Source: a virus
Taxonomy: Duplodnaviria; Heunggongvirae; Uroviricota; Caudoviricetes
Virus record (IMG/VR): IMGVR_UViG_2537561825_000012
DNA length: 37,368 bases
Direction: 5' to 3' (one strand)
Position 1 is the first letter of the stretch. Every line of letters starts with the position of its first letter. Both the position numbers and the translations under genes were made by a program. Below the pieces are notes generated by a model that was not told where the DNA came from, did not search any database, and saw only the letters and a list, made by a program, of their open reading frames with translations. Of this stretch, positions 825 to 37,368 are shown piece after piece.

Positions 825-1397
825 TTACATTTCAGGTTGCGTTATGACAGTCCCAACAGGGTGATAGCGGTAGATCGTTGACAGTCCAATATCATAGATA
901 ATTGCCAGCCGCTTTCTGTCATACCCTTTCTGGAGCAATCTTGCGATCTGCTCATGCTGCTCCTTCGTCAGTTTCGGGCGACGTCCTCCAACTCTTCCTT
1001 GTGCTCGCGCAGCAGCCAGTCCAGCCAGCGTGCGCTCAACTATCAGTTCACGCTCCATTTCTGCCAGTGCACCCATCATATGAAAAAAGAACCTTCCCAT
1101 CGGAGTGCTGGTATCGATTGAATCCGTCAGACTGCGAAAATTGACACCTTTTGCGCGTAGCTCTTCTGTGAGAGCAATGAGGTGTTTCATTCTTCTACCC
1201 AACCGATCCAGCTTCCAGACCACCAATGTATCCCCTCTTTTAAGGCACTTTAAAGCGCGTTTCAGGCCTGGTCGTTCCGACTTGGTTCCGCTCATTTTGT
1301 CCTCAAAAATCTGTTCACATCCTGCGCACATTAATGCATTGCGTTGCAAATCTGTGTTTTGGTCATTTGTTGACACACGTATGTAGCCAATCAGCAT
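825..1397 (-). CDS. gin: Serine DNA invertase, Gin/Pin/Cin/Hin family
   Basis: N-terminus MLIGYIRVSTNDQNTDLQRNAL from ATG at 1397-1395 with AAGGGAG RBS; ~190 aa. The ORF-track N-terminal extension to 1526 is rejected. Confidence 0.9.
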   Translation of the reverse strand: MLIGYIRVSTNDQNTDLQRNALMCAGCEQIFEDKMSGTKSERPGLKRALKCLKRGDTLVVWKLDRLGRRMKHLIALTEELRAKGVNFRSLTDSIDTSTPMGRFFFHMMGALAEMERELIVERTLAGLAAARAQGRVGGRRPKLTKEQHEQIARLLQKGYDRKRLAIIYDIGLSTIYRYHPVGTVITQPEM

Positions 1398-1451
1398 TAA
1401 AAATACTCCCTTTTGAGTGGTTAAAGTACTGAGATAATGTGGGGAGGATTT

Positions 1452-1477
1452 GAGAGATAAACGTTGGTTTGGGGGAA
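1452..1477. other. gix-like 26-bp recombination site C (inverted relative to sites A and B)
   Basis: GAGAGATAAACGTTGGTTTGGGGGAA; its reverse complement TTCCCCCAAACCAACGTTTATCTCTC aligns with sites A and B; sits about 55 bp upstream of the invertase start. Confidence 0.55.
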
Positions 1478-1930
1478 GGCTCTGCATTGCCTGTTGGTGT
1501 ACCGGTTCCATGGCCCACCGCCACACCGCCAGCAGGCTGGTTACAGTGCAACGGAGCTACGTTCACCAAAGAACAATATCCTGTTCTGGCCAGAGTCTAC
1601 CCGACCCTCCGTCTTCCCGATTTGCGCGGTGAGTTTATCCGTGGATGGGACGGTGGTCGCAAGGTTGATACCGGGCGTGCGCTACTTTCATTTCAGGAAG
1701 GGACTATCGTATCCGGTTTTGATGATAATGATACCGGAGATATCAGTTCGCTCGGCTCTACACAATACGGATTTGGTGACGCTTTAACCTCTAATCAACT
1801 GGGGGTCTTAAATGGCAAAAAGTGGATATTTGATGCATCCTCTAAAGGTGCACAAAGATATGACTGGTGGGCTTATGTATCAGCTCGCCCCCGCAATATC
1901 GCATTTAACTATATCGTGAGGGCGGCGTGA
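1469..1930 (+). CDS. Silent alternative tail-fibre C-terminal cassette (Sv3), inverted relative to the expressed fibre gene
   Basis: Shares the conserved LGEGSALPVGVPVPWPTATPPAGW...RGEFIRGWD.GRKVDTGR block and C-terminal RPRNIAFNYIVRAA with the other two cassettes; no promoter or constant part on this strand. Confidence 0.7.
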   Translation: MGEGSALPVGVPVPWPTATPPAGWLQCNGATFTKEQYPVLARVYPTLRLPDLRGEFIRGWDGGRKVDTGRALLSFQEGTIVSGFDDNDTGDISSLGSTQYGFGDALTSNQLGVLNGKKWIFDASSKGAQRYDWWAYVSARPRNIAFNYIVRAA

Positions 1931-1936
1931 TACCGT

Positions 1937-2551
1937 TCAGCCGGCAAGCGCCAGTGGCGCTTCCGGCCAGCTGATTTCAGGTGCCTTGCTGATATCCAGT
2001 GCGTTCAGCTCGTCGATATAATCCAGCACGGCGTTCAGTTTTGCCGTTTCTTCTGGTTTCAGACTGCGACCAGCACGCAGTTTGAGGTTGATAAGATCGA
2101 CGGACGCCATCGCCTGTTTCACCCGTTGCTGGCGTTGCTGTCTGGCAACCTCCAGTTCTGCGGCTCGCTGCCGTTCAGTATCGGTTACCCACGCCTCACC
2201 GTTCCAGGTATCCCATGGCGTGGCTGGCTGTTTTGTGGTGGTGTCCGCCGGGTAATCACCCGGTTGGGTAATCAGAACGGGGTTACCGTTCTCCGTGCTG
2301 TATACCGTCTCGCCGCGGTGATCAGGCACATGCTCCCACCCGTTCAGCGTGGCAGTCCGGCAAACCACGTAACCCGAAATTGCTTCCGGCGGTGCATCGG
2401 CGCACGAATGTGCCGGAGTACCCACCCCAAGGGCGAGATACTCCACAGAGGATGAGGTGTATTCCCGGGTTTCCTCGTCATAGTGATATACAGTGATATC
2501 GCCCGCTACAGTGGCGATACCGTTTTCATCCAGAACTGCAGTGTTACTCAT
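1937..2551 (-). CDS. Tail fibre assembly protein (Tfa; Mu U / P2 gpG-like)
   Basis: 204 aa, position immediately after a fibre cassette; start overlaps the Sv2 stop (TAATG) with a GAGGG RBS. Confidence 0.75.
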   Translation of the reverse strand: MSNTAVLDENGIATVAGDITVYHYDEETREYTSSSVEYLALGVGTPAHSCADAPPEAISGYVVCRTATLNGWEHVPDHRGETVYSTENGNPVLITQPGDYPADTTTKQPATPWDTWNGEAWVTDTERQRAAELEVARQQRQQRVKQAMASVDLINLKLRAGRSLKPEETAKLNAVLDYIDELNALDISKAPEISWPEAPLALAG

Positions 2552-3033
2552 TAAACTGCCCTCACAATGTAATTAAGTGCAATGCTACGGGGTCTGACAG
2601 TGATACCCTTCGCATACCCGCTTCTGATAGAGGTCAGAATAGTAGCCTGCATACCATTGTCTGACATTGCCACGACAGGATCGCTGAATGTTGTCCCGTC
2701 CGGCATTTTAAAGCTGCCCTCACGAAGGTCTGTAATGGAATCTTCATTGTTGAATCCCATGCCGACTATCCCCGAGGTTCCCGTAGTGTCCTGGTTATAA
2801 TAATCCAGCATTGCTGTTCTTAACAGCGTTGCCCCTTGTGCGGACAGCAACTTACGTCCTGTATCAACTTTGCGCCCGTCGTCCCATCCACGGATAAACT
2901 CACCGCGTAAATCGGGAAGACGGAGGGTCGGGTAGACTCTGGCCAGAACAGGATATTGTTCTTTTGTAAAGGCGCGCCCGTCGCACTTTAACCAGCCTGC
3001 TGGCGGTGTGGCGGTGGGCCACGGAACAGGCAC
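2551..3033 (-). CDS. Silent alternative tail-fibre C-terminal cassette (Sv2), same orientation as the expressed gene but out of frame with it
   Basis: Begins inside the conserved repeat block; frame differs from the upstream fibre ORF (whose stop lies at 3074-3076), so it is not read-through product. Confidence 0.65.
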   Translation of the reverse strand: MPVPWPTATPPAGWLKCDGRAFTKEQYPVLARVYPTLRLPDLRGEFIRGWDDGRKVDTGRKLLSAQGATLLRTAMLDYYNQDTTGTSGIVGMGFNNEDSITDLREGSFKMPDGTTFSDPVVAMSDNGMQATILTSIRSGYAKGITVRPRSIALNYIVRAV

Positions 3034-3054
3034 ACCAACGGGTAGCGCCGAGCC

Positions 3055-3080
3055 TTCTCCTAAACCAACGTTTCTATGCC
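3055..3080. other. gix-like recombination site B (direct relative to site A)
   Basis: TTCTCCTAAACCAACGTTTCTATGCC at the upstream edge of the second copy of the ~190-bp conserved block. Confidence 0.5.
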
Positions 3081-4327
3081 GCCCTTACGATGTAATTAAA
3101 CGCAATGTTACGGGGACGAATGGTCACATAATTAACCCCATCGCCTCGCGAAGGACCTGCAAATGAAAAACGGGAGAATCCAGGTTGGTTGTCAAGGATT
3201 TGGTCATAGTTATTGATTGAATGACCAGACCCAATGTCAAAATTACCTGCGTAATGAGAAAAACTTGTACCATCCTGCCGTGAAAGCAGATCGCGCCCTG
3301 TATCCACTTTTCGCCCGTCGTCCCATCCACGGATAAACTCACCGCGCAAATCGGGAAGACGGAGGGTCGGGTAGACTCTGGCCAGAACAGGATATTGTTC
3401 TTTTGTAAAGGCGCGCCCGTCGCACTTTAACCAGCCTGCTGGCGGTGTGGCAGTGGGCCACGGAACAGGTACACCAACGGGCAGCGCCGAGCCTTCCCCC
3501 AAACCAAGGTAATTGAGGACATCTTTTATACTGCCCTTAGCGATAATAGCGCGACCAATAGCTGTAAGGGTTGCCAGCTCTGCGCGGTCTGCTCCGGTAA
3601 AATAAGGCAACCGATCTGCTGCAGTGGCAAGTCCTGCCAGAGCAGTGAGCGTGGCATCTGCCGGTTGTTTTCCGTTTGCCAGATCGTATGCAGCCTTGAC
3701 CGCTTTCGGTGTGGCGGCCAGTATTTCAGACGTGCTGTTGATGGCACTGCTCAATTGTACGGTGCCTTTTGCCGTCAGCGAGGCAGCAGGCACTCCCGTT
3801 ATCTGACTCCACGGGTGAGTGTGGCTGACGGGCGCCTTGCCGGCTGCAAGGTCGTATGCAGCCTTGACCGCCTTCGGCGTGGCAGCCTCAGTTTCTGATT
3901 GACTGTCCGTGGCGCTGCTCAGTTGTACGGTGCCTTTTGCCGTCAGCGAGGCAGCAGGCACTCCCGTTATCTGACTCCACGGGTGAGTATGGCTGACGGG
4001 GGCCTTGCCGGCAGCCAGGTCATATGCAGCCTTGACGGCCTTTGGTGTGGCGGCCAGCGTTTCAGAGGTGCTGTTGGTGGCACTGCTCAGTTGGGTGAAC
4101 CCCTTAGCTGTCAGTGTCGCGTCCGGGTGGTTACGGGAACGTACGTGTTCAGCCAGTGACTGTGCGGCTTCCTCCGTTTTTTTCTTCAGCCATTTCGTCC
4201 TGTTTGCCAGTTGCCGGGGGGCTCGATTTGATATCCCGTCTGCACCACCCAGAACCGGATCTGATGTCTCCAGTTGATAGATATTTTCTTCCCACTTTTC
4301 TGTTTCATTCAGGTTTCCCATAATCAA
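3074..4327 (-). CDS. Tail fibre protein (constant part Sc fused to cassette Sv1 in the present orientation)
   Basis: 417 aa; three tandem 56-aa repeats (TAKG..QLSSA.....AATPKAVKAAYDLA.GK); C-terminus carries the conserved cassette block. Confidence 0.85.
   Translation of the reverse strand: MIMGNLNETEKWEENIYQLETSDPVLGGADGISNRAPRQLANRTKWLKKKTEEAAQSLAEHVRSRNHPDATLTAKGFTQLSSATNSTSETLAATPKAVKAAYDLAAGKAPVSHTHPWSQITGVPAASLTAKGTVQLSSATDSQSETEAATPKAVKAAYDLAAGKAPVSHTHPWSQITGVPAASLTAKGTVQLSSAINSTSEILAATPKAVKAAYDLANGKQPADATLTALAGLATAADRLPYFTGADRAELATLTAIGRAIIAKGSIKDVLNYLGLGEGSALPVGVPVPWPTATPPAGWLKCDGRAFTKEQYPVLARVYPTLRLPDLRGEFIRGWDDGRKVDTGRDLLSRQDGTSFSHYAGNFDIGSGHSINNYDQILDNQPGFSRFSFAGPSRGDGVNYVTIRPRNIAFNYIVRAA
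3494..3519. other. gix-like recombination site A at the Sc/Sv junction
   Basis: TTCCCCCAAACCAAGGTAATTGAGGA; homology between cassettes begins immediately downstream (transcript sense) of this site. Confidence 0.55.
3640..4111. repeat. Tandem 168-bp coding repeat, about 2.8 copies, inside the tail fibre gene
   Basis: GTCGTATGCAGCCTTGACCGCC-type segments recur at 3683, 3851 and 4019 (period 168 bp = 56 aa). Confidence 0.8.
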
Positions 4328-4902
4328 CTGCTCCCGTGGTTATAACTGCCATCATGGATGGCGGTATTGTTATAGCGAATGGCCACAGACTGATACTCCA
4401 GGCTGGCCAGATGGCAGCGGGCCGGTGCAAATGCAGCGAGCGTCTGACGCAGCATCGCGGCCTGATCGTTAGTAATGGGCTGTTTCAGAATAACGCGATA
4501 AACTGCCCAGGCGGCTGCATCTCCATGAACAAACAGTCCGTTATAGCTGCGATTGCCGTCGTAACTGAGACGACCTGTGCCTTCAATCAGATCCACTTCA
4601 CCAAAGCCAAAACGGCGGATAACTTCCCGGATTGACCACGGCGTCCCTTTATACCGGTGCAGTTCGATGGCTGCTTTTATAAGCATGCGGCGAACATCGT
4701 CCGATTCCGCCAGCTCCCAGCCATCGCCAGACAGTGAGAACTGCTCGCCCAGCCATGGCAGCGCGGAACTGTCGACGATATCGACGAGAAAGACCATCAG
4801 TACGCTCAGGTCGATGTTATCCAGCCGTCCTGCCAGTCTTCCCAGCGTCCTGAGACTGATATCACCCTCAAGCGGTGGCGGGAGTTGTAATGGCTCAGTC
4901 AT
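4324..4902 (-). CDS. Tail protein (P2 gpI-like / Mu gp48-like baseplate component)
   Basis: 192 aa ORF directly upstream of the fibre gene in a P2-type V-W-J-I-H-G order. Confidence 0.7.
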   Translation of the reverse strand: MTEPLQLPPPLEGDISLRTLGRLAGRLDNIDLSVLMVFLVDIVDSSALPWLGEQFSLSGDGWELAESDDVRRMLIKAAIELHRYKGTPWSIREVIRRFGFGEVDLIEGTGRLSYDGNRSYNGLFVHGDAAAWAVYRVILKQPITNDQAAMLRQTLAAFAPARCHLASLEYQSVAIRYNNTAIHDGSYNHGSS

Positions 4903-5998: not shown

Positions 5999-6336
5999 AG
6001 CAGCTCCTGAGTCCGGGTCTGTCCGTCTGAGCCTTTCCAGCTCACCCGGAGCGTAAGATGTTCGCCGTCGACGGCGGGTTTAACTGACATAAGCTGGCAG
6101 CGGGGCTCCCAGCGCCGGATGGCATCGACGGATTCGCGCACCACATGCGGAATGGCCCGGTCTACAGGCCAGTCGATATAAAGATGCAGATTGCTGCCGA
6201 ACTCCGGGCGATGCGGGTCGCTGCCGCGGGGAGTCCGCAGGATAATTTGAATCGCCTGCCGGATATCATCCAGCCCCCGGACAATTTCGCCGGGAGCCTG
6301 CAGGGTCGGTTGCCAGAATACTGAGGTTGTTTTCAT
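5989..6336 (-). CDS. Baseplate wedge protein (P2 gpW / T4 gp25-like)
   Basis: 115 aa, same length as P2 gpW; position between V and J homologues. Confidence 0.7.
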   Translation of the reverse strand: MKTTSVFWQPTLQAPGEIVRGLDDIRQAIQIILRTPRGSDPHRPEFGSNLHLYIDWPVDRAIPHVVRESVDAIRRWEPRCQLMSVKPAVDGEHLTLRVSWKGSDGQTRTQELLWR

Positions 6337-6390
6337 GGGGGCAGTATTGCCCCCGTGCGGGAACGCTGATATTAAAGGCGTTTAAAAAGC

Positions 6391-9222: not shown

Positions 9223-11912
9223 CAGCGGTACTCCTTACGTTGTTTCTGAGCCAGCAGACGCTCCAGCATTTTTTCCAGCTCATGCAGACTCATATTCAGG
9301 GCACCAGTCAGTCCTGCAGGCGCTGTGGTTTCCCTGCCATTGAGGAAAAACTGAGGATTAAAGCTGACCTGGATACCACCAGACGTTCCACCGCCGGTTG
9401 CAGCTGCACCACGGCCTGAATATCCGGCAGCCAGGATTTCAGGCGAGGGGATACGGGGAACATCCGGTGTCATCTCATTTGCCAGACGTTGCCCTGGTAA
9501 AATCGATGCCCGGGTGGAGAGCGGAATAGCGGGCATGGAAGACAAACTATTGATTACGGCTCCGATCGCATTTTTAGCAGACGACATAAACCCATTGATA
9601 TCGGGCAACGGCATACTGAAGCGAACACCTGAAGTGTTATCCCGTATTTCTGGCCCCTGGATGCTCACGGGCATTCTGGGGAGCAGTTCACTGGCCATTC
9701 GCTGCCCGGCCAGAGCTGCAAGCGGAGTGGTCCGCTGCAGGCCAATGGCGGCCCCCTGCGCGATATTGTCACCAAAGCCCATAAACACGCGGCTCGGCGA
9801 ATGAATGCCCAGCTTTTCGCTGACCCAGCCACTGATGCTGTCACCCATTCCGGTTACACTGGATTTGAGCGACTCCCATTTGTTTTTGATACCGTTAATC
9901 AGACCATCGACAAGATGGCCACCGAAGTCGGTAAACTTTGCCGGCAGATCAACACCAAGATATTTCAGCGCAGCTGCAAAGGCTTTATAGAGCAGGCCTG
10001 CCGGCGACCAGTTAATCAGTAACTTACCAATTCCCACAATGCCGCCGTTAAAGGCTTCCTGAATGTCTGCCCAGCGCTGTTTAAACCAGCCACTGACTGC
10101 CCCCCAGTTGCGGTAGATAAGGTAAGCTGCTGCCGCGACAGCGGTGATAACGAGACCGATGGGATTCATCATCAGCGCACGTCCAATCCAGAGAACAGCA
10201 CGTCCGGCGAGCATAATTCCGCGAACCAGCCCCCCGGAGAGCACGCCACTCAGTGTTCTGGCTCCTCTGGCGACGGCGCTAAATCCGGTCACCAGCCAGC
10301 GGAGCTTACCGCCTTGCCCCAGTGCGAGCGACAGACGAAGCCAGTTGGCCCGAAGTAAAACAGCATTTTTCCAGACACTTACAAAGGGGGAAATAAGGAG
10401 ATTCAGCCCCAGTTTGAGACCAACAGTCGCTATCTTAATCGCAAGGAGCGCACTGATGAGCTTAAAAGCCCCACTGACAAATTGCGGGTGAGTCGCTACC
10501 CAGTGTTTTGCCCCCTGAATGAGTGGAAGCAGTTCCTGAGTCAAAGAAATAAAAGATGGAGCTAATTGATCGCCCAGCGTAATTGCCAGATCGCGACTGC
10601 TGACCATAAGTGTTTTAGTGGCTTCAAGGGGAGATTTCAGCCGCTGATCATAAGCACTGGCAAGCAAATCGTTATCCGCAGCCCTGAGAGCACCGGCACG
10701 GATCTCTCGATATCTGTCCATGTTGGCCAGCATCGGGCGGATAAATGCCATGACCTGCATATCCGCGAACATATCGCCCAGACCAAAGTTTTTCGCCAGA
10801 GCCTGAAGTGCCTCATCTCTTGCCGTATCATTCTTTATTTTCATGGCTGATTTGAAGCCGGCCAGCGCTTCGGGGCTTTTGGCATTGAGGTAACGTTCTA
10901 TAACACTCAACATCCCTTCAATCGGAGAGATCCCCGCAGCTTTATAACTCGCAATAGATCCCTGCAAATCAATACCCAGATCAGCAAACTGTTTCTGAGT
11001 ATCGCGGGCAAAAATTTTGGTAAGAAAGTTTTTAAAATTATTGGCTGCTTCGTCGGTGGAACCTGCACCGATTTTTGCTATCTGGAGACTGGCCCCGATT
11101 TCAGCAACAGCCTCTTTTCCACTGGCAATCCCCGCCATCATTGGGGCCAGGGACTGCATCCACTTGACCTGATCCGGGATTTCAAATGACCCCTGGTCAC
11201 CGGCATAAGCCATAATATTCTGAACGGCACCAAAATCTCTGGCCGCACCTTTCAGGGAGTTTTGCCAGACTGCGGCCACTTTTGCCCAGTCCTGAGCAGA
11301 CGTGCGTGTTGCCGTTGCCGCGCGGGCAATATCCGGCATCAGAAAACCGATATCTGACACATTATCAATATTGTCGCTGATGAGTGAACCCACCGCCTCC
11401 TGCAGCTCATCCTGATACTGATTGTATTTAAGCGCCCAGCCTTTTATCTGTCCGGCAAGTCCATCCCGCGTTTTATTGTCATATTTTGCGGTGATCGACA
11501 TATCAATCATTTTGTCCTGAAAAGACATGGACTGCTGAACGGCAGGGGAAACCGTATGATAAACAGTCTGTGCCATGCCATACGCTTCAATCCCCTGACC
11601 ATACAGCGCCATGCGGTTAGCTTTCAGCGCATCACTGGTAGCGGATGCCGCTGACAGACGGCGCTGCTGGCGCTCAATTTGCTCCATGGTGCGGCTTACC
11701 CGCAGCAGCTCGCTGTTGAGATGCTGCATCCGGGAAGAACCCAGTTGACCATAACGTTCTGTTGCACGGGTTAAAGCGTTCTGACGTTCCTGCAGGCGGC
11801 GTGAGGTATCGCTCAGGGAATCAAGCGCACGGCGGGTACCGCTCATTGCAGAACGGAATGTGCTACCAATCATCCCGCCGATAACAACGCCGACTGAAAA
11901 CTGTCCCGACAT
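9222..11912 (-). CDS. Tail tape measure protein
   Basis: 896 aa, coiled-coil-rich N-terminus, Gly/Ala-rich hydrophobic middle; downstream of the frameshifted chaperone pair. Confidence 0.9.
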   Translation of the reverse strand: MSGQFSVGVVIGGMIGSTFRSAMSGTRRALDSLSDTSRRLQERQNALTRATERYGQLGSSRMQHLNSELLRVSRTMEQIERQQRRLSAASATSDALKANRMALYGQGIEAYGMAQTVYHTVSPAVQQSMSFQDKMIDMSITAKYDNKTRDGLAGQIKGWALKYNQYQDELQEAVGSLISDNIDNVSDIGFLMPDIARAATATRTSAQDWAKVAAVWQNSLKGAARDFGAVQNIMAYAGDQGSFEIPDQVKWMQSLAPMMAGIASGKEAVAEIGASLQIAKIGAGSTDEAANNFKNFLTKIFARDTQKQFADLGIDLQGSIASYKAAGISPIEGMLSVIERYLNAKSPEALAGFKSAMKIKNDTARDEALQALAKNFGLGDMFADMQVMAFIRPMLANMDRYREIRAGALRAADNDLLASAYDQRLKSPLEATKTLMVSSRDLAITLGDQLAPSFISLTQELLPLIQGAKHWVATHPQFVSGAFKLISALLAIKIATVGLKLGLNLLISPFVSVWKNAVLLRANWLRLSLALGQGGKLRWLVTGFSAVARGARTLSGVLSGGLVRGIMLAGRAVLWIGRALMMNPIGLVITAVAAAAYLIYRNWGAVSGWFKQRWADIQEAFNGGIVGIGKLLINWSPAGLLYKAFAAALKYLGVDLPAKFTDFGGHLVDGLINGIKNKWESLKSSVTGMGDSISGWVSEKLGIHSPSRVFMGFGDNIAQGAAIGLQRTTPLAALAGQRMASELLPRMPVSIQGPEIRDNTSGVRFSMPLPDINGFMSSAKNAIGAVINSLSSMPAIPLSTRASILPGQRLANEMTPDVPRIPSPEILAAGYSGRGAAATGGGTSGGIQVSFNPQFFLNGRETTAPAGLTGALNMSLHELEKMLERLLAQKQRKEYR

Positions 11913-12245: not shown

Positions 12246-12405
12246 TCAGCGGTTCGTCCCAGTCTGCCGGGTTTTTGCTGATTTTGCGCACCTGCTTCAG
12301 GTCTTTTACCGTCAGGCGTTTCAGTTCAACCTGCTCAATTCTGGTGCCTGCAGCAGTGGTGAAGGGATAAGACAATTTAAAAGTATCGGATGGGGTCTGT
12401 GACAT
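12133..12405 (-). CDS. Tail assembly chaperone (P2 gpE-like)
   Basis: 90 aa ORF between tube and tape measure genes; C-terminal DYLQLQKRFQLI-type motif. Confidence 0.7.
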   Translation of the reverse strand: MSQTPSDTFKLSYPFTTAAGTRIEQVELKRLTVKDLKQVRKISKNPADWDEPLIARSTGLLPEDLDNMDLADYLQLQKRFQLITGMGESN

Positions 12406-12485
12406 GATTGTGCTCCTGTGTAAGTTCAGGGCAGTATGTCGGGAGAAGCGCGTGACGGATATTAAAGGAGATTAAGAAGAAGGGG

Positions 12486-12499
12486 CCGGAGCCCCTGTG
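12486..12499 (-). terminator. Candidate intrinsic terminator between tail tube and chaperone genes
   Basis: GGGGC-CGGA-GCCCC stem-loop followed on the minus strand by UUCUUCUUAAUCUCCUUU. Confidence 0.45.
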
Positions 12500-13309: not shown

Positions 13310-14736
13310 CAGTTGCCCCCTTTCAGGGTTAACAGGTATTCCGAGGTGATCTCAGTCTCAAACGTCAGTCGCTCCAGCGGCGGTGGTGGCGTATATTTGT
13401 AGCTCAGCAACAGGTGCCCGGCGGCCAGCTCCGTCTCCGGATTGCGGGCCGGATCAAACCAGCAACGGAAGCCCAGTACCGCACCATCACCAGTCATTTT
13501 GCGACCGTAGGCGTTGACCGACTCCGTCAGTGCATCAATCAGCGCCTGAGTAATCGGCATGTCGATGTACTGCTGGCTGAAATAACGAATGGACTCGTTG
13601 ATCACATCACCGGGGCGGCGAACGTTCTCAAAGTTACGCATATGGGTGACCGTTGGCCATGCTGCCGTCCGGTTACCCCACAGACGAAGGCCGCTGCCGT
13701 AACTGCTGAATACCGTGGTGATCCCCTGTTCGTTAAGCAGGTTTACCTCACTCTGCGGGTCATCAATCATCGCGGACAGCTGGCGCTCCACGCCGGTGAT
13801 CCCCAGAATCTCCTGATTGGAGGATGACCACCAGTAGCCCTTGTCCAGATCGACTCTGGCACGCAGACCTGCTGCACGCTGGCTGAGCGGCTCCAGACGC
13901 TCTGTGTTTGTCACCGGGTCATATACCTTCACATGCGGATAGCACAGACGGACGCGGTCGGAGCTGGTATTGAAGTTGATGGTGCCTTCCGGGCCACGAC
14001 CTGCCAGAGCCTGTGCAAAGGTGGTACCGACAGGCGCATCAATGTAGGTTACCGCGCCCAGCTTCTCTGCCATGGCGATAAGCTCAACTGCGACACTCTT
14101 CTGGGTGCAGAACACCGGCGCAATCAGAATTTTGGCGAAATAGCCGTACAGGTTGAAGCTGTCGTTAAGCAGCTTCATGCCGGTTCGGTTTCCGGCGCTG
14201 TTCACCCCGCCGATGATGTCCGCCGCAGTCACCTTCGACGGGTCCGCGTACTCATAGCTCACCTTCACGCTGCCACCGGCCTCAATAGCCTTGCCCAGGT
14301 TCGTGAGCACACCCGCCTGCGCATCAACACGGTAGTCCGTGTTCGCCGTGTGGGTGGTGCTGCCTTCACTGTTTTTCACCACCACATTAGCGACAACCGG
14401 ATGCGCCAGTCTGGCCTGCCCTGTCGATTTGTCAAAGGTAACCACCTCATCCTCGATCGCCGTTTTATGTTTCGCCGGGTCGAGGACGTTAATGACCAGA
14501 ACGGTGCCTGCACCATGGTCATAAATCGCATCCAGCGCCTGCGGAATGGTAAAGCCGGTGAACTGGCTGCCAAATGCCGCTGCGTCTTTCTCAGACAGGC
14601 ACTGTACCAGCGTATTGACATCCCCCATCGGGGCGGTACCAATCAGGCCAATAACGGCAGATTTCACCGTTTTAACCGGGCGGGCTCCGTTTTCCACCTC
14701 AATGGTTTCGGGACCATGCAGATAGTTAGCTGCCAT
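13309..14736 (-). CDS. Tail sheath protein (P2 FI / Mu L-like)
   Basis: 475 aa; sheath-tube gene pair. Confidence 0.85.
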   Translation of the reverse strand: MAANYLHGPETIEVENGARPVKTVKSAVIGLIGTAPMGDVNTLVQCLSEKDAAAFGSQFTGFTIPQALDAIYDHGAGTVLVINVLDPAKHKTAIEDEVVTFDKSTGQARLAHPVVANVVVKNSEGSTTHTANTDYRVDAQAGVLTNLGKAIEAGGSVKVSYEYADPSKVTAADIIGGVNSAGNRTGMKLLNDSFNLYGYFAKILIAPVFCTQKSVAVELIAMAEKLGAVTYIDAPVGTTFAQALAGRGPEGTINFNTSSDRVRLCYPHVKVYDPVTNTERLEPLSQRAAGLRARVDLDKGYWWSSSNQEILGITGVERQLSAMIDDPQSEVNLLNEQGITTVFSSYGSGLRLWGNRTAAWPTVTHMRNFENVRRPGDVINESIRYFSQQYIDMPITQALIDALTESVNAYGRKMTGDGAVLGFRCWFDPARNPETELAAGHLLLSYKYTPPPPLERLTFETEITSEYLLTLKGGN

Positions 14737-18320: not shown

Positions 18321-18375
18321 TTTGCTGTCCCGCGTTATGTTGTCGGAGACAGTTTGTGAGAAATGCAGGCCCGGC

Positions 18376-18383
18376 GATTTTAA
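18376..18383 (-). promoter_or_regulatory. Candidate late promoter -10-like element upstream of the I-like gene
   Basis: Minus-sense TTAAAATC followed 24 nt later by TGTCTCC (18351-18345); the same pair with the same spacing precedes the holin gene. Confidence 0.4.
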
Positions 18384-18456
18384 TCTGCTTTAGAAAACAT
18401 CAGGGGAGAAGGACAGGGAAAGCAATACGGTGAACCGGAGGCGGTTATAAAACAGA

Positions 18457-18489
18457 GGCTGTAAAGCCTTTATAAAGGTAATACAGCCC
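18457..18489. other. 33-bp imperfect palindrome between G-like and I-like genes (terminator or protein-binding site)
   Basis: GGCTGTA..CCTTTATAAAGG..TACAGCC with perfect 12-bp inner palindrome; U-rich run follows on the minus strand. Confidence 0.4.
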
Positions 18490-18534
18490 CTCATTCGCTG
18501 GCAATGATAAATCACCCGCCTGAAGAGAGAAAAC

Positions 18535-18993
18535 TCAGCGACGGGCCGCTGATTCAAGATGGCGGACAATGGTATCGAGGATGGGGATTACCACTTCAGG
18601 CTGTAGTTCTCCATCCCCCGTCACCGGCAGGAACGGGCGGGCCGGAAGTTCAACAGACTCATTACGCCCCGTTTTACCCCCGAACTGGTGAATGGCACCG
18701 TAAACAACGTTGGTCCCCACAACAGCCTGCCGGTCGTCATGGTCGGTTGATACTGACCCCATCAGACGCCCGGTATCCTGCAGTGTCTGCCCGTCACGCT
18801 CTTCCGCTGCCAGCGAGGGCATCCACCCCGGACGCCCCTCATCAAGAAAGTTAAACTGTGTTTCCGCCAGCAGGGTTCCGGCAATTTTGCGCATCGCGGG
18901 CTCCAGGTCTGTGGCAGCAAGATCCAGCGCACGGAGGCTCCGGCGCAGGGATTTATCGTTAATGGTGATACTGACCAGGTTATCGGAAGCCAT
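18535..18993 (-). CDS. Virion morphogenesis protein (Mu G-like)
   Basis: 152 aa, between F-like and I-like genes. Confidence 0.7.
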   Translation of the reverse strand: MASDNLVSITINDKSLRRSLRALDLAATDLEPAMRKIAGTLLAETQFNFLDEGRPGWMPSLAAEERDGQTLQDTGRLMGSVSTDHDDRQAVVGTNVVYGAIHQFGGKTGRNESVELPARPFLPVTGDGELQPEVVIPILDTIVRHLESAARR

Positions 18994-18995
18994 TG

Positions 18996-19817
18996 TTATC
19001 CTCTCAGTTCCTGTTGTGCCAGTGGCTGAAGCGTACCCTGATAGCGGGCCAGGTCGGGACGGTATGCTGCCCCCGGTGCATAAGACCAGCCGACGTCGGT
19101 GATCACCTTCGTGGTGCCGGTATTAAAGGTGGCCACGTTCCGCATTTCGCCGGTTTTCTCTGAGACCAGTTTCAGTTCCTGGCCCATGGCAGAGCCGGAG
19201 CTGATAACCTTCAGGCCACGGGCACGTACATCCGCCGCACTCAGGGCAATCACACTACAGCGGCAGCGCCAGCCGTTCGGCGGGTAAAATGCCTGCCAGA
19301 ACGGGTCATCCCAGCGCAGCACCAGACCATGCAGCGCCAGATGGCTCCTGCGGGTATGGCTGTCGTTGATGCCGGTATACATCCAGTACGGCCTGTCGTC
19401 GACGTTTTCCATCTGTTCCGCCCAACGACCGGCGCTGTAGAGTACGGACATATTGGTGCGAAAGATGGTATCGAGCCGCCACGGACTGCCCTGCTGAATG
19501 GTGACTGGCTCACCCGTTACCGGGTCAGTCGTGTCACGTGGTCCCCACCATCCCTTACGCTTCAGCACCGGCTCCAGCTCCTGCCGGAACCAGCGATCGG
19601 TTTTTCCTTCATCGACAGCCTGCTGCAGTGCCCCGCGAATATCTTCCAGGATATCCAGGCGGGTCACTTTAGCAACGGTAAAGGCGCGGGCATGGGCCTC
19701 CTGCCACATTTCTTCCCAGTCCCAGGTAATCTGATACCCTTTGGACTTCAGGTAGTTGATTGCCCGCTTCGGGGGAAGCGTCATGCAGTACGCCAGTTCA
19801 GCCGTTGTCACGCTCAT
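18996..19817 (-). CDS. Head morphogenesis protein (Mu F-like)
   Basis: 273 aa, directly downstream of the portal gene. Confidence 0.75.
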   Translation of the reverse strand: MSVTTAELAYCMTLPPKRAINYLKSKGYQITWDWEEMWQEAHARAFTVAKVTRLDILEDIRGALQQAVDEGKTDRWFRQELEPVLKRKGWWGPRDTTDPVTGEPVTIQQGSPWRLDTIFRTNMSVLYSAGRWAEQMENVDDRPYWMYTGINDSHTRRSHLALHGLVLRWDDPFWQAFYPPNGWRCRCSVIALSAADVRARGLKVISSGSAMGQELKLVSEKTGEMRNVATFNTGTTKVITDVGWSYAPGAAYRPDLARYQGTLQPLAQQELRG

Positions 19818-25795: not shown

Positions 25796-25818
25796 TGTCT
25801 CCTTATCTGGTGGAGACA
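25796..25818 (-). promoter_or_regulatory. Stem-loop sequestering the holin ribosome-binding site
   Basis: UGUCUCC / GGAGACA arms (7 bp) with 9-nt loop; the 3' arm contains the Shine-Dalgarno sequence. Confidence 0.4.
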
Positions 25819-25842
25819 GCATCACAAATACAGGGCGCGAAG

Positions 25843-25850
25843 GATTTTAA
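25843..25850 (-). promoter_or_regulatory. Candidate late promoter -10-like element upstream of the holin gene
   Basis: Minus-sense TTAAAATC followed 24 nt later by TGTCTCC (25818-25812), matching the element upstream of the I-like gene. Confidence 0.4.
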
Positions 25851-25922
25851 AGCGCGTTAAGAGAGCCGGGGATACGGGATGTGCAGGATAAACGATGAAT
25901 TATTCACAGAGGAGAATACGAT

Positions 25923-26651
25923 ATGACGCAGACACTGAATCCGGTCATCACTGTCACCGTGTCCGGTCCTGTGGGCAGCGGTAAAAGTTACGTACTGGCG
26001 CGAATAGAGGAAGTGGTGAAACAGGAATTCGGAAACAGCGTCATTGTCGACGCCGCAGACGTGGACGGTGAGCGCCGTATGAGTGGGGATGATCTGAGCA
26101 CATGGCAGAAACCACGGGCTGGCACAGTGATCAGGCTGGAGGAATACACGGGACAGGGCCTGTTGTCATACGGCGAGGAGCGTATCTGTCGGACGAATGA
26201 GCTGCTGGATGTTATATGCCCCACGGGCCGGCAACCCTGGATACTGCCCGATGCACTGCATGCCACCATTGCGGCACTGATGACAGTTTACGATCAGGAG
26301 CTGCTCATGAAGGAGTTACGTAAACTCACTGGTCAGTCAACAGAATGTTGTTCGTCCCCGAAGTACGGCAAACAGGAACACATCCCGATTAACCAGCCTC
26401 CCCGGTTCTTCGACGAATACCTTCTGACACCGGAAAATAAAGCTGAGCATGAAGAGATCAAAGCGGCGTTGTTCCGGGAAATCAGGAAGATTGCTGAAAT
26501 GCAACTGGAGGGCGGGCTGGACAGAGTGATGGCGAGAGGAGAATGGGCATCGCTGTTTGAAAGAGTTTCCCCGGAATTACTTCCCCTCGCACTGGCTATC
26601 GGGATTATGCAGACAGCGGATAAACCTCACTTACGTTCATTAAACACGTAA
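25923..26651 (+). CDS. P-loop NTPase, kinase-like (zeta-toxin / polynucleotide-kinase-like motif arrangement)
   Basis: Walker A GPVGSGKS at residues 15-22 followed about 14 aa later by GNSVIVDAAD; GGAG RBS 8 nt upstream. Confidence 0.6.
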   Translation: MTQTLNPVITVTVSGPVGSGKSYVLARIEEVVKQEFGNSVIVDAADVDGERRMSGDDLSTWQKPRAGTVIRLEEYTGQGLLSYGEERICRTNELLDVICPTGRQPWILPDALHATIAALMTVYDQELLMKELRKLTGQSTECCSSPKYGKQEHIPINQPPRFFDEYLLTPENKAEHEEIKAALFREIRKIAEMQLEGGLDRVMARGEWASLFERVSPELLPLALAIGIMQTADKPHLRSLNT

Positions 26652-27031
26652 CGCATAATCCGGGATACGCATTCAGCGATGACTGCATTTTCACCGGTTT
26701 TTACTGCATCCAGAAGTGACTCTTTAAATGGTACGGGCCGGGGCTGCAGAAAGGTCGGCATGGCATTGAGCAGACAGAGCGTTTTTTCCGTGAGGACGAC
26801 ATCAGCCGCTCCCACAGCCAGCAACTGAGAGTAACGAATATAGCTGTTATCCCGAAGCCATATCAGCGTATCAATAAAACACCGGCACTTTTTCTGGTCG
26901 TGATCAACCTGGTCCGGGATATCGAAAAAACCAGAATAAATCAAAACCTGAGGTGCCGGATGCGTGTTCAGTAATCGGCAGAATATTTTGCCGGTGAGTA
27001 CATAAAAATCATCATTTAAGGAGTGCATCAT
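26627..27031 (-). CDS. Hypothetical 134-aa protein, antisense to the surrounding plus-strand module
   Basis: Only long ORF covering the 380-bp plus-strand gap in moderately AT-rich DNA; convergent 25-bp overlap with the upstream gene. Confidence 0.45.
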   Translation of the reverse strand: MMHSLNDDFYVLTGKIFCRLLNTHPAPQVLIYSGFFDIPDQVDHDQKKCRCFIDTLIWLRDNSYIRYSQLLAVGAADVVLTEKTLCLLNAMPTFLQPRPVPFKESLLDAVKTGENAVIAECVSRIMRYVFNERK

Positions 27032-27245
27032 GAATCCCCGATTAACGTTAACAGAACATCAGCGCCGTGCTGAAGCAGTGAACAATGTTCTGGAAGATAT
27101 TATCCGGTTATACCGCGGAGAACTGAGTGTCTGTCGTGCCGCTTTTCATTTTCAGGGAATACAAAAGCAGTTTGATACTTCTGTTTTTGCAGAAGGTATT
27201 ACTTATGCCCTGGACCGGATAAGGTCAGAAAATCGCCCCGGATAA
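27030..27245 (+). CDS. Hypothetical 71-aa protein
   Basis: ATG with AAGGAG 6 nt upstream. Confidence 0.5.
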   Translation: MNPRLTLTEHQRRAEAVNNVLEDIIRLYRGELSVCRAAFHFQGIQKQFDTSVFAEGITYALDRIRSENRPG

Positions 27246-27300
27246 TCCCTAAACCACATTAACAGAAATCCCGCCATCCCTGCCGCATCATGAAAGAACG

Positions 27301-27330
27301 ACCAGCCCGGCACCCGAAAGCCGGGCTGGT
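27301..27330. other. Perfect 11-bp GC-rich stem-loop between the 71-aa ORF and the methyltransferase gene
   Basis: ACCAGCCCGGC-acccgaaa-GCCGGGCTGGT; no clean U-tract on the plus strand, UUCUUUC on the minus strand. Confidence 0.4.
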
Positions 27331-27435
27331 CATCGCCCCACAGGAATGCGCTGTGAGCCGACCAAGGTTCAGTCAGTCTCGCGAGACCTGACCAGACTGC
27401 CATATTTTTTAATAATTGTAAAAGGCTTGCAGATT

Positions 27436-28200
27436 ATGAAAATGCAGACATTACCCATCGTGCCGTGGATTGGTGGCAAACGCCGCCTTGCAAAACACAT
27501 TCTGCCGCTGTTTCCGGCGCATGAATGTTATGTGGAGCCGTTTTGTGGGGCAGCAGCGCTCTATTTTCTTAAGACACCCGGCAAGATCGAAGTCATCAAT
27601 GATATCAACGGTGAACTGGTGAATCTGTACCGGGTGGTAAAGCATCACCTGGAAGAATTTGTCCGCCAGTTCAAATGGGCGCTGGTCAGCCGTCAGATCT
27701 ACAAATGGCTGCAGATCACCCCGGAAGAAACACTGACGGATATCCAGCGTGCGGCACGGTTCTACTACCTTCAGAAGCAGGCGTTTGGCGGCAAGGTGGC
27801 AGAGCACAGCTTCGGTACCTCCACCACATCCCCGCCACGCTTCAACCTGCTACGTATTGAAGAAGAACTGTCAGCGGCACACCTGCGGCTTTCCAGAACA
27901 GTCATAGAACACATGGACTGGCAACAGTGCATTGAGCGTTATGATCGTCCGCACACGCTGTTCTACTGCGACCCACCGTACCTGGGTACGGAAGGCTATG
28001 GTGTGGATTTTCCTGAAGGGAACTACTCGCGGCTGGCAGAGCTGGCCCGGTGCATCAGAGGAAAAATGATAATTTCGGTGAACGACATCCCGCAGATGCG
28101 CGAGGTGTTCACTGGACTGAACATACAGACAGTGAATATCAACTACAGTCTGGCGGGTAAACCCACGCCGCGCCGTGAACTGCTAATCTGCAACTTCTGA
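27436..28200 (+). CDS. dam: DNA adenine methyltransferase, Dam family
   Basis: WIGGK, EPFCGAAA and CDPPY motifs; ATG at 27436 (the ORF-track start at 27346 is upstream). Confidence 0.8.
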   Translation: MKMQTLPIVPWIGGKRRLAKHILPLFPAHECYVEPFCGAAALYFLKTPGKIEVINDINGELVNLYRVVKHHLEEFVRQFKWALVSRQIYKWLQITPEETLTDIQRAARFYYLQKQAFGGKVAEHSFGTSTTSPPRFNLLRIEEELSAAHLRLSRTVIEHMDWQQCIERYDRPHTLFYCDPPYLGTEGYGVDFPEGNYSRLAELARCIRGKMIISVNDIPQMREVFTGLNIQTVNINYSLAGKPTPRRELLICNF

Positions 28201-36557: not shown

Positions 36558-37007
36558 ATGCAGAAAAAACGCCTGATACAGCTTATCCATATTGCCCGTA
36601 ATGAACTGGGTATGGATGAAGACACCTACCGCCAGATGTTACAGGGGCTGACCGGTAAAGCCTCAACCAAAGGAATGGATACCACACAACTAAACTGCGT
36701 GCTGGAATCCATGAAAAAGAAAGGCTTTCGCGTTAAACCAGCCAGAAAAGCCAGCTCCGGTTTACCGCTGGATAACCATCCGCAGTCCAGGAAAATTCGT
36801 GCGCTATGGCTTGAAATGGCTGCTGCCGGCATTGTTCGTGACCGTTCAGAAAATGCATTAGCGAGGTGGATCAAGCGGGAAACGGGCATCAGCGCCCTGC
36901 GCTGGCTCAGTACTGAACAGGCAAGCAGTGTTATTGAGAAACTGAAGAAGTGGCAGCGCAGAGCTGCGGGAGTCAAACATGAGCGACCTGAATCAGTTTC
37001 GAAGTAA
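36558..37007 (+). CDS. gemA: GemA-like regulatory protein (Mu gp16 family)
   Basis: 149 aa; N-terminal KKRLIQLIHIARNELGMDEDTYR pattern; overlaps the Mor-like gene as in Mu. Confidence 0.7.
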   Translation: MQKKRLIQLIHIARNELGMDEDTYRQMLQGLTGKASTKGMDTTQLNCVLESMKKKGFRVKPARKASSGLPLDNHPQSRKIRALWLEMAAAGIVRDRSENALARWIKRETGISALRWLSTEQASSVIEKLKKWQRRAAGVKHERPESVSK

Positions 37008-37368
37008 GGGGCCGGAACTCCTGGTGGAACTGGCACAGCATACCTCTGAGACCGTTCGCGAGATTATTGATATTGAGCCCGAAGTTGCCGACCAGATTGG
37101 TCAGGCCGTCGCGAACCGAATGATGCAGGTCTGGGGCGGGCAAAACGTTTATTTCCCGATGGGCATGGTATGGAAGGTCAGTCAGCGCGACCGGGAAATC
37201 TTCAGGGAGTTTAACGGACGCAACCACCACGAACTGGCCCGCAAATTTGGTGTTTCGCTTCAGTGGGTCTACAGCGTGGTTAAGCGGGTAAGAAAAGAAG
37301 AACTGGATCGGATGCAGGGCAAGCTATTTGCTGATGAACCCGATGCAGATACGGAGAAAAAAGAGTAA
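36979..37368 (+). CDS. mor: Mor-family transcriptional activator
   Basis: 129 aa; conserved GGQNVYFP...FNGRN..ELARKFGVS...VY pattern of Mor/C activators; stop codon is the last triplet of the window. Confidence 0.75.
   Translation: MSDLNQFRSKGPELLVELAQHTSETVREIIDIEPEVADQIGQAVANRMMQVWGGQNVYFPMGMVWKVSQRDREIFREFNGRNHHELARKFGVSLQWVYSVVKRVRKEELDRMQGKLFADEPDADTEKKE

Follow-up and report, generated by a model that had tools for sequence, protein, structure and literature searches.

Four intergenic gaps in the late region of a transposable Escherichia coli prophage carry one and the same signature, and these sites are quite probably four late promoters. Judging from their anatomy, they would be sigma-70 promoters devoid of a -35 element, activated at a TTAA-N6-TTAA dyad by the lone Mor/C-family protein of the prophage. 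It is by analogy with phage Mu that we infer the late start sites, their dependence on an activator and the protein that binds. The Mor/C-family protein, whose gene stands last in the early operon, would bind the dyad as a dimer, some 42-43 bp upstream of the start. Together with wATC at -35 to -32, it would recruit or activate the host RNA polymerase on a weak nAnnCT -10 hexamer. Transcription would begin about 7 nt after the hexamer, at the four positions predicted in Table 1, and would feed four leftward late operons: one for lysis, terminase and portal, one for head, sheath and tube, one for chaperone, tape measure, gpD and gpV, and one for baseplate and fibres. As there is a single Mor-family gene and no paralogue of it, the cascade would have two tiers (early, late), against three (Mor, C, late) in Mu, so that one Mor-family protein may replace the Mor-to-C relay of that phage.

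Mu is the well-known example of promoters of this kind. What appears to be undescribed in the literature that we searched is the recognition sequence, together with the single-activator cascade and the promoter map; no earlier description of BcepMu-type late promoters was found there, Summer et al. 2004 (J Mol Biol) lying outside that search.

The prophage and its four-copy signature

The window (the whole stretch of DNA analysed, 37,368 nt) is a Mu-like transposable prophage of the BcepMu (Bcepmuvirus) type, from E. coli. One E. coli genome matches it with 100% identity and places the prophage between otsB and araH. The Mor-family gene forms the end of the prophage, and nothing of the latter is found beyond it. 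The family is common in E. coli, a close match to its 10.5-kb late region being present in 642 of 5,426 complete genomes of the species, and it has relatives in Klebsiella, Pseudomonas and Burkholderia. Among named phage families BcepMu comes nearest, its I-like protein being 49% identical. Late genes run leftward and the early operon rightward (Table 1).

Table 1. Late promoters, genes and associated elements of the prophage, with coordinates in the window
Feature	Coordinates	Strand	Parts	Context
Predicted holin promoter	25811-25860	-	dyad TTAACGCGCTTTAA 25860-25847; AATC 25846-25843; spacer 25842-25824 (19 nt); -10-like GATGCT 25823-25818; discriminator GTCTCC 25817-25812; predicted +1 A 25811; ATG 25792	ahead of holin/lysis-terminase-portal operon
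Predicted I-like promoter	18344-18393	-	dyad CTAAAGCAGATTAA 18393-18380; AATC 18379-18376; spacer 18375-18357; -10-like CAAACT 18356-18351; discriminator GTCTCC 18350-18345; predicted +1 G 18344; ATG 18320	ahead of I-like (protease/scaffold)-capsid-sheath-tube operon
Predicted chaperone promoter	12426-12475	-	dyad TTAATCTCCTTTAA 12475-12462; TATC 12461-12458; spacer 12457-12439; -10-like CATACT 12438-12433; discriminator GCCCTG 12432-12427; predicted +1 A 12426; ATG 12405	ahead of tail-assembly-chaperone/tape-measure/gpD/gpV operon
Predicted gpW promoter	6336-6385	-	dyad TTAAACGCCTTTAA 6385-6372; TATC 6371-6368; spacer 6367-6349; -10-like AATACT 6348-6343; discriminator GCCCCC 6342-6337; predicted +1 = A of gpW ATG, 6336	ahead of gpW (gp25-like)/J/I/tail-fibre operon
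Terminator stem	12482-12495	-	GGGGCTCCGGCCCC; T-run merges into the 12-kb dyad	strong, intrinsic
Holin inverted repeat	25796-25818	-	TGTCTCC 25818-25812; GGAGACA 25802-25796	
I-like inverted repeat	18325-18352	-	CTGTCTC 18352-18346; GGGACAG 18331-18325	ahead of start codon
Candidate fifth site	27249-27298	+	CTAAACCACATTAA-CAGA-N19-CATCAT	ahead of Dam-type methylase leader (gene 27436-28200)
Candidate divergent promoter	25847-25896	+	holin dyad reversed: TTAAAGCGCGTTAA-GAGA-N19-CAGGAT	toward cargo gene start 25923
Late genes, first part		-	holin, SLT lysin, spanin, Mu gp27-like small terminase, large terminase	
Late genes, middle		-	DUF935 portal, F-like, G-like, 215-nt gap, I-like, capsid, sheath, tube	
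Late genes, last part		-	chaperone, tape measure, gpD, gpV, gpW, J, I, fibres	
Early operon	from ~28.8 kb	+	last genes GemA, then Mor-family gene	
Mor/C-family gene	36979-37368	+	PF08765 Mor, E 1.3e-43, profile positions 1-107 of 107	last of early operon

Two further elements of the late region deserve mention for themselves. A serine-invertase gene adjoins the tail-fibre genes (window ~825-4330), and two near-identical segments of 77 nt, at ~3023 and ~3462, lie on one strand. In the E. coli genome that is 100% identical and served for annotation, the region ~825-4330 is arranged otherwise, which suggests an invertible host-range cassette akin to the G segment. Between the G-like and I-like genes lies a palindromic block, GAGGGGCTGTATTACCTTTATAAAGGCTTTACAGCCTCTG, at 18453-18492 (minus-strand sense). 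All IMG/VR relatives, as well as BcepMu and Komp_PAO1_1, conserve its core CTTTATAAAG; the arms flanking this core differ in sequence from phage to phage, with their complementarity kept. Near the centre of the prophage, it occupies the slot of the strong gyrase site in Mu, and it could be a terminator, an analogue of the gyrase site, or both.

The starting point was a pair of sites. A first-pass annotation had noticed, upstream of the I-like and holin genes, TTAAAATC followed after 24 nt by TGTCTCC, and had proposed two late start regions. The observation is exact: the minus strand reads TTAAAATC-GCCGGGCCTGCATTTCTCACAAAC-TGTCTCC at 18383-18345 and TTAAAATC-CTTCGCGCCCTGTATTTGTGATGC-TGTCTCC at 25850-25812. 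These are the only two matches in the window, even with two mismatches allowed, against a mean of 0.05, and never two or more, in 100 dinucleotide shuffles; taken singly, TTAAAATC is found three times and TGTCTCC nine times. Aligning the 18-kb and 25-kb regions extends the similarity upstream of TTAAAATC. A relaxed search brought in two more minus-strand sites, at 12474-12432 and 6384-6342, and the pattern TAA-N6-TTAAWATC-N20-ANNCTG has four matches, all on the minus strand, and none in 100 shuffles. The proposal of Mu-type late promoters is supported by anatomy, relatives and Mu geometry; their number had to be raised to four.

The full signature, yTAA-N6-TTAA-wATC-N19-nAnnCT-GyCyyy, is met four times, on the minus strand only and in intergenic gaps only. 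It consists, in this order, of a dyad (yTAA-N6-TTAA), AATC or TATC, a 19-nt spacer, a hexamer, a second hexamer rich in G+C, and a purine. The late region has few intergenic gaps, and each copy sits in one of them; the genes that follow are those for holin, the I-like protein, the tail chaperone (Phage_TAC_7) and gpW (GPW_gp25). The terminator stem GGGGCTCCGGCCCC, as predicted from its sequence, closes the I-like operon just before the chaperone promoter. A consensus promoter scan called no promoter at the four sites, and inspection by eye of these sites for IHF and CRP consensus sequences gave no consistent match. When all viral contigs were scanned with a wide version of the pattern, the matches listed were mostly unrelated contigs; the pattern is too loose for that purpose. 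Within prophages of this family, the promoter map together with the candidate recognition sequence TTAA-N6-TTAA-wATC-N19-nAnnCT allows annotation of the late operons.

Conservation, activator and rival readings

A motif search across related prophages, which had been proposed along with the original pair of sites, found the signature kept at the homologous promoters in about 180 distinct relative sequences. Searches of IMG/VR with the large terminase and with the gpD-like protein yielded 160 related loci (protein identity 82-100%). Over the four promoters, the mean majority fraction is 0.92-0.99 in the dyad block, 0.85-0.98 in hexamer plus discriminator, and 0.60-0.87 in the spacer. The latter is the part that varies most in sequence; of 182 distinct sequences, nonetheless, 179 have a spacer of 19 nt and three have one of 20 nt. 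The A at position 2 of the hexamer and the CT at positions 5-6 are invariant in the relatives (182 distinct sequences). For the holin promoter (51 distinct sequences) the values are 0.93 for the dyad block, 0.95 for hexamer plus discriminator, 0.73 for the spacer and 0.63 upstream, with a spacer of 19 nt in every one of the 51; the I-like promoter has this same spacer in 43 of 43 distinct relatives, where its hexamer is CAAACT, CAGACT, GAAACT or GACACT. At the holin promoter, and in several relatives at the gpW promoter, homology between clades breaks right upstream of the first TTAA, and therefore nothing further upstream seems to be required. Two conserved blocks at a fixed spacing would be the footprint expected of two elements contacted by proteins.

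The same architecture is found much farther away. Like the prophage, BcepMu has an early operon inverted with respect to the late genes, a lone Mor-family gene (gp01) at its end, a Mu-like head and a P2-like tail. With phiE255 and Komp_PAO1_1 it is syntenic with the prophage, and dyad, 19-nt spacer and hexamer lie in the same four gaps; the differences lie in protein identity (about 42-49% for BcepMu and Komp_PAO1_1) and in the hairpins discussed below, which are unlike in sequence. The BcepMu sites read CTAAAGCCGATTAAAAGA-N19-CAAGAT (holin), GTAAAGCCGATTAAAAGA-N19-GATGAT (I equivalent), TTAATCTGCGCTGAAAGT-N19-GACAAT (chaperone) and TTAGCCGGCTTTAATATC-N19-CAACAT (gpW). Pseudomonas phage Komp_PAO1_1 (42% identity) has exactly four copies of CTCTTTAAACCyGATTAAAAGCC, all on the strand of the late genes; they precede its lysis, I-like, chaperone and gpW genes, and after each come N19 and then GATCAT, CAGGCT, GATGCT or CATTAT. 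Klebsiella phage KP12 has all four sites at the same junctions. Other boxes are common to the lysis and I promoters of phiSHP3 (CGTGCAAATGACCTG, at 11180-11215 and 19255-19290 of locus L287) and of YPCBV-1 (CCGCTGAAGTCCTTCGCCT, at ~10510-10540 and ~18650-18680 of locus L286). Both phages have other Mor variants, and different boxes are to be expected if site and activator co-evolve; this suggests lineage-specific activator sites within an otherwise conserved promoter architecture. Differential RNA-seq of uninduced Burkholderia cenocepacia J2315, the one public start-site data set found for a BcepMu lysogen, displays no start at the four predicted positions (PMC4603805, supplementary file 3), a silence that speaks neither for nor against the promoters, because the cells were uninduced.

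As to the activator, the first-pass annotation had noted a Mor-family protein and no C homologue. Indeed, the six-frame translation of the window contains a single Mor-family gene and no second Mor/C paralogue. Its product stands roughly as far from Mu C (9l0x) as from Mu Mor (1rr7), the E values of these PDB matches being ~4e-9. The helix-turn-helix (HTH) segment is identical or nearly so in the phages with the TTAA-N6-TTAA site: VSLQWVY here and in KP12, VSLQWIY in BcepMu gp01, VSLQFVY in Komp_PAO1_1. Mu C has LSQPQIY, thus differing at positions reported as DNA contacts (bioRxiv 10.1101/2025.05.02.651988). In the C-terminal part of the protein, QGKLF (residues 113-117, encoded at 37315-37329) lines up with QPDLF of Mu C; its Q, L and F do not vary among the five proteins aligned (those of the prophage, BcepMu, Komp_PAO1_1, KP12 and Mu C). 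At the C-terminus of Mu C, QPDLF is the clamp-binding motif needed for Mu late transcription (PMC12867686); in view of the alignment, clamp dependence may extend to the prophage. The predicted promoters would offer a second, divergent site on which to study Mor/C-family activation, this dependence included.

Which of the two original blocks holds the -10 element is the point where the main competing interpretation departs from ours. In the frame adopted here, TTAAAATC combines the promoter-proximal half-site, TTAA, with four conserved bases at the predicted positions -35 to -32, and TGTCTCC is the last T of the -10-like hexamer (GATGCT, CAAACT) plus the G+C-rich discriminator GTCTCC. The earlier description left these two halves unassigned and missed the hairpin through which TGTCTCC would pair with a Shine-Dalgarno region. 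One may suppose instead that TAAAAT or TAATAT, within TTAAAATC, is the true -10, while TGTCTCC and its Shine-Dalgarno partner make a hairpin in the 5' untranslated region that would act as a translational operator, like that of Mu Com at mom; transcription would then begin about 7 nt downstream of TAAAAT or TAATAT. This we hold to be very improbable. It is true that these hexamers match TATAAT in five positions of six at all four sites of the window, better than nAnnCT, whose hexamers are weak (3-4 of 6), and that the hairpins predicted between hexamer region and start codon beat shuffled sequences in stability in 9 of 12 promoters of three phages, their complementarity being kept in relatives. 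A sigma-70 -10 hexamer without T at -7, however, is not credible, and relatives have TTAAAAGC or TTAACAGC in place of TTAAAATC, without that T. In most relatives the I promoter has TAAAAG or TAACAG in place of TAAAAT; TAAAAG stands in four of four Komp_PAO1_1 sites and in the two clearest of BcepMu. Because these versions lack the essential T, TTAAAATC should not be the -10. This reading would need an activator site or a -35 farther upstream than the first TTAA, yet no conservation is seen there, and mosaicism starts at that very point. It would also leave the invariant nAnnCT at a fixed 19 nt unexplained. TAAWAT as a -10 was rejected for the G at -7 in relatives and the want of conserved sequence upstream.

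Who binds the dyad is a separate matter. Analogy and co-conservation suggest Mor. A host nucleoid protein or another phage protein is an unlikely candidate, even though the site is AT-rich, as are many sites of host architectural proteins, and no family could be assigned to several of the small late and early proteins. Such a factor would have to account for a site that is maintained, alongside the conserved HTH segment of Mor, in phages from Escherichia, Klebsiella, Pseudomonas and Burkholderia, replaced by other boxes where Mor itself varies (phiSHP3, YPCBV-1), placed as are the Mor and C sites in Mu, and absent from the repressor/early-promoter region of the window. It is hardly conceivable, finally, that the resemblance of the sites is a leftover of duplication or a matter of chance, with no regulatory role. 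The original two-site motif specifies 15 bases only, which might leave room for this, but the numbers expected by chance are 0.05 (two sites) and 0 (four-site pattern), conservation goes by blocks with a spacer of fixed length over some 180 distinct sequences, and distant phages show the architecture again. We retain four Mor-activated promoters as the preferred account.

Hairpins, leaderless geometry and further dyads

At two of these promoters the predicted -10 region is complementary to the region of the following start codon (Table 1). In the holin repeat, the 5' arm comprises the end of the -10 and the discriminator, the 3' arm contains the holin Shine-Dalgarno sequence, and the pairing is perfect. 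Over 28 distinct sequences 90.6% of cells are paired, against 34-51% in slid controls; the changes are of the G-U type, without double changes, so that covariation gives no support beyond conservation itself. The minimum free energy is -14.2 kcal/mol (z -2.5). For the I-like repeat the figure is 99.2% paired over 19 distinct sequences (slid controls 36-51%), and two of the seven pairs have changes on both sides (CTGCCTC/GAGGCAG, for example). BcepMu and Komp_PAO1_1 have inverted repeats of unrelated sequence at the same place, some of which connect discriminator and start-codon region, and others of which lie on either side of the -10: ATGCCGTC-CAAGAT-GACGGCAT at the BcepMu holin promoter, CGCCGCC-GATCAT-GGCGGCG at that of Komp_PAO1_1, and GGGGGCA-ATAC-TGCCCCC at the gpW promoter here. 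Nine of 12 segments from the three phages fold better than shuffled ones (z < -1.9), the fold windows having been chosen after the repeats were seen. As the predicted start lies about 7 nt past the hexamer, the 5' arm would be found only in RNA reading through from elsewhere; the Shine-Dalgarno region would then be masked in such RNA and accessible in RNA started at the promoter. This suggests that the hairpins may insulate translation from outside transcription.

The gpW gene is arranged differently. Its ATG comes exactly 6 nt after the hexamer, with no Shine-Dalgarno sequence before it, and in relatives the third-codon-position variation begins right at this ATG (6336). A distance of 6-7 nt from hexamer to ATG is also seen for gpW in BcepMu and Komp_PAO1_1 and for the likely I starts of BcepMu and phiSHP3. 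On the simplest reading, transcription would begin with the A of the AUG itself and give a leaderless mRNA.

Dyads are not restricted to the four late promoters. Among 11 oriented readings of yTAA-N6-TTAA in the window, six have, at the canonical distance, a hexamer whose positions 2 and 6 are A and T: the four late promoters and two plus-strand readings. A TAA-N6-TTAA dyad precedes the leader of the Dam-type methylase gene in all relatives, with a -10-like hexamer 19, 20, 26 or 33 nt away according to the clade; because this spacing varies, the site is a candidate only, and would then be the counterpart of Mu Pmom. The divergent candidate, which reuses the holin dyad, has a fitting geometry, but a hexamer with A2 and T6 at one fixed place is met by chance in about 1 case in 16. 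Three matches to TAA-N6-TTAA fall in coding regions, at 1240-1253 (invertase), 12368-12380 (chaperone) and 13733-13745 (sheath), and are probably due to chance or to coding constraint; that in the invertase gene has no -10-like hexamer at the canonical distance in either orientation.

Several observations concern the neighbourhood of these dyads. The methylase leader (27298-27435, plus strand), about 140 nt long, is conserved and apparently structured, with a hairpin GACCAGCCCGG...CCGGGCTGGTC that undergoes compensatory changes in relatives; on the opposite strand it resembles a terminator facing the holin promoter. A variable cargo block, at 25923-27245, encodes proteins of 242 (plus strand, weak P-loop/AAA match), 134 (minus) and 71 (plus) residues. 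It is flanked by two copies of the TAA-N6-TTAA dyad, and many relatives lack it; in these, nothing separates the holin dyad from the methylase leader.

Taken together, three further ideas may be offered, tentatively and with more doubt than confidence: the late promoters may restrict translation to RNA that was initiated there, through hairpin masking or leaderless initiation; the holin dyad may work both ways; and transcription of the Dam-type methylase gene may be driven from a further dyad, a counterpart of Mu Pmom. If real, the hairpin and leaderless geometries would add translational insulation to the transcriptional control of lethal lysis genes.

Comparison with IS10, P2 and Mu

Masking of a ribosome-binding site solely in transcripts that read in from outside is known from IS10, where it underlies fold-back inhibition. 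Like IS10 and IS50, the prophage has a segment, upstream of its own (here predicted) start, that is complementary to the ribosome-binding site. The likeness has its bounds: in the prophage the arrangement is predicted from sequence, and the repeats of gpW here and of the holin promoters in BcepMu and Komp_PAO1_1 flank the -10 instead.

The late promoters of P2 and 186 depend on zinc-finger activators of the Ogr/Delta family, which recognize TGT-N12-ACA centred near -55. The general plan is alike, with four activator-dependent late promoters (as predicted here) ahead of P2-type tail blocks and poor -35 elements. Examination by eye of the sequence just upstream of the two tail-operon sites did not reveal the Ogr motif, TGT-N12-ACA, and the window proteins that were scanned (part of the open reading frames) included none of the zinc-finger family.

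It is with Mu that the resemblance is closest. The traits of the Mu class that are present here, as known from sequence, are the gene for a Mor/C-family activator, a -10-like hexamer without a -35, a dyad near the predicted -43.5 with conserved bases just downstream, and a location ahead of the late units. In the absence of a -35 hexamer the first-pass annotation was right: 17 bp upstream of the predicted -10 we read AATCCT, AATCGC, TATCCG and TATCAG, which match TTGACA in 1-2 positions of six. With nAnnCT at -12 to -7, the dyad extends from -49 to -36 with its centre at -42.5, and wATC from -35 to -32, relative to the predicted start. At Mu Pm, the Mor dyad covers -51 to -36, centred at -43.5 (PMC4287176); C at Plys needs -52 to -34, and bases just downstream of the dyad matter as well (PMC2582627). 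In both systems, then, an activator dyad centred near -43 ends just upstream of the -35 position, with conserved bases directly downstream. The distance from the right half-site to the hexamer is also close, ATAA lying 24 nt upstream in Mu and TTAA 23 nt upstream here. According to the Mu genome record, whose annotation of the late promoters refers to the original mapping paper, the hexamers at the equivalent place are TAGACT (Plys), CAAACT (PI), TATCCT (PP) and TAAGAT (Pmom). These are of the nAnnCT or nAnnnT type, and the PI hexamer is identical to that of the I-like promoter of the prophage; nAnnCT is therefore a trait common to both. Each phage has four late promoters (predicted ones in the prophage), among them one in the gap between G and I at the centre of the genome, and an activator, likewise predicted here, from family PF08765. 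Terminators lie directly upstream of promoters in both, for Plys and PI in the Mu record and for the 12-kb promoter here.

What differs is the recognition sequence and the number of regulators. The prophage has TTAA-N6-TTAA, with half-sites one helical turn apart, and since TTAA is self-complementary, a dyad and a direct repeat cannot be told apart. The C sites of Mu, by contrast, are TTAT-N11-ATAA/CCATAAyCCC, and Pm has AGCCGGTTAATCCGGCT. One activator is present here against two in Mu, and therefore no separate middle stage is apparent in the prophage. The tail operons, finally, are P2-like, and the corresponding promoters stand ahead of the chaperone and gpW genes, whereas in Mu the promoter lies inside gene N.
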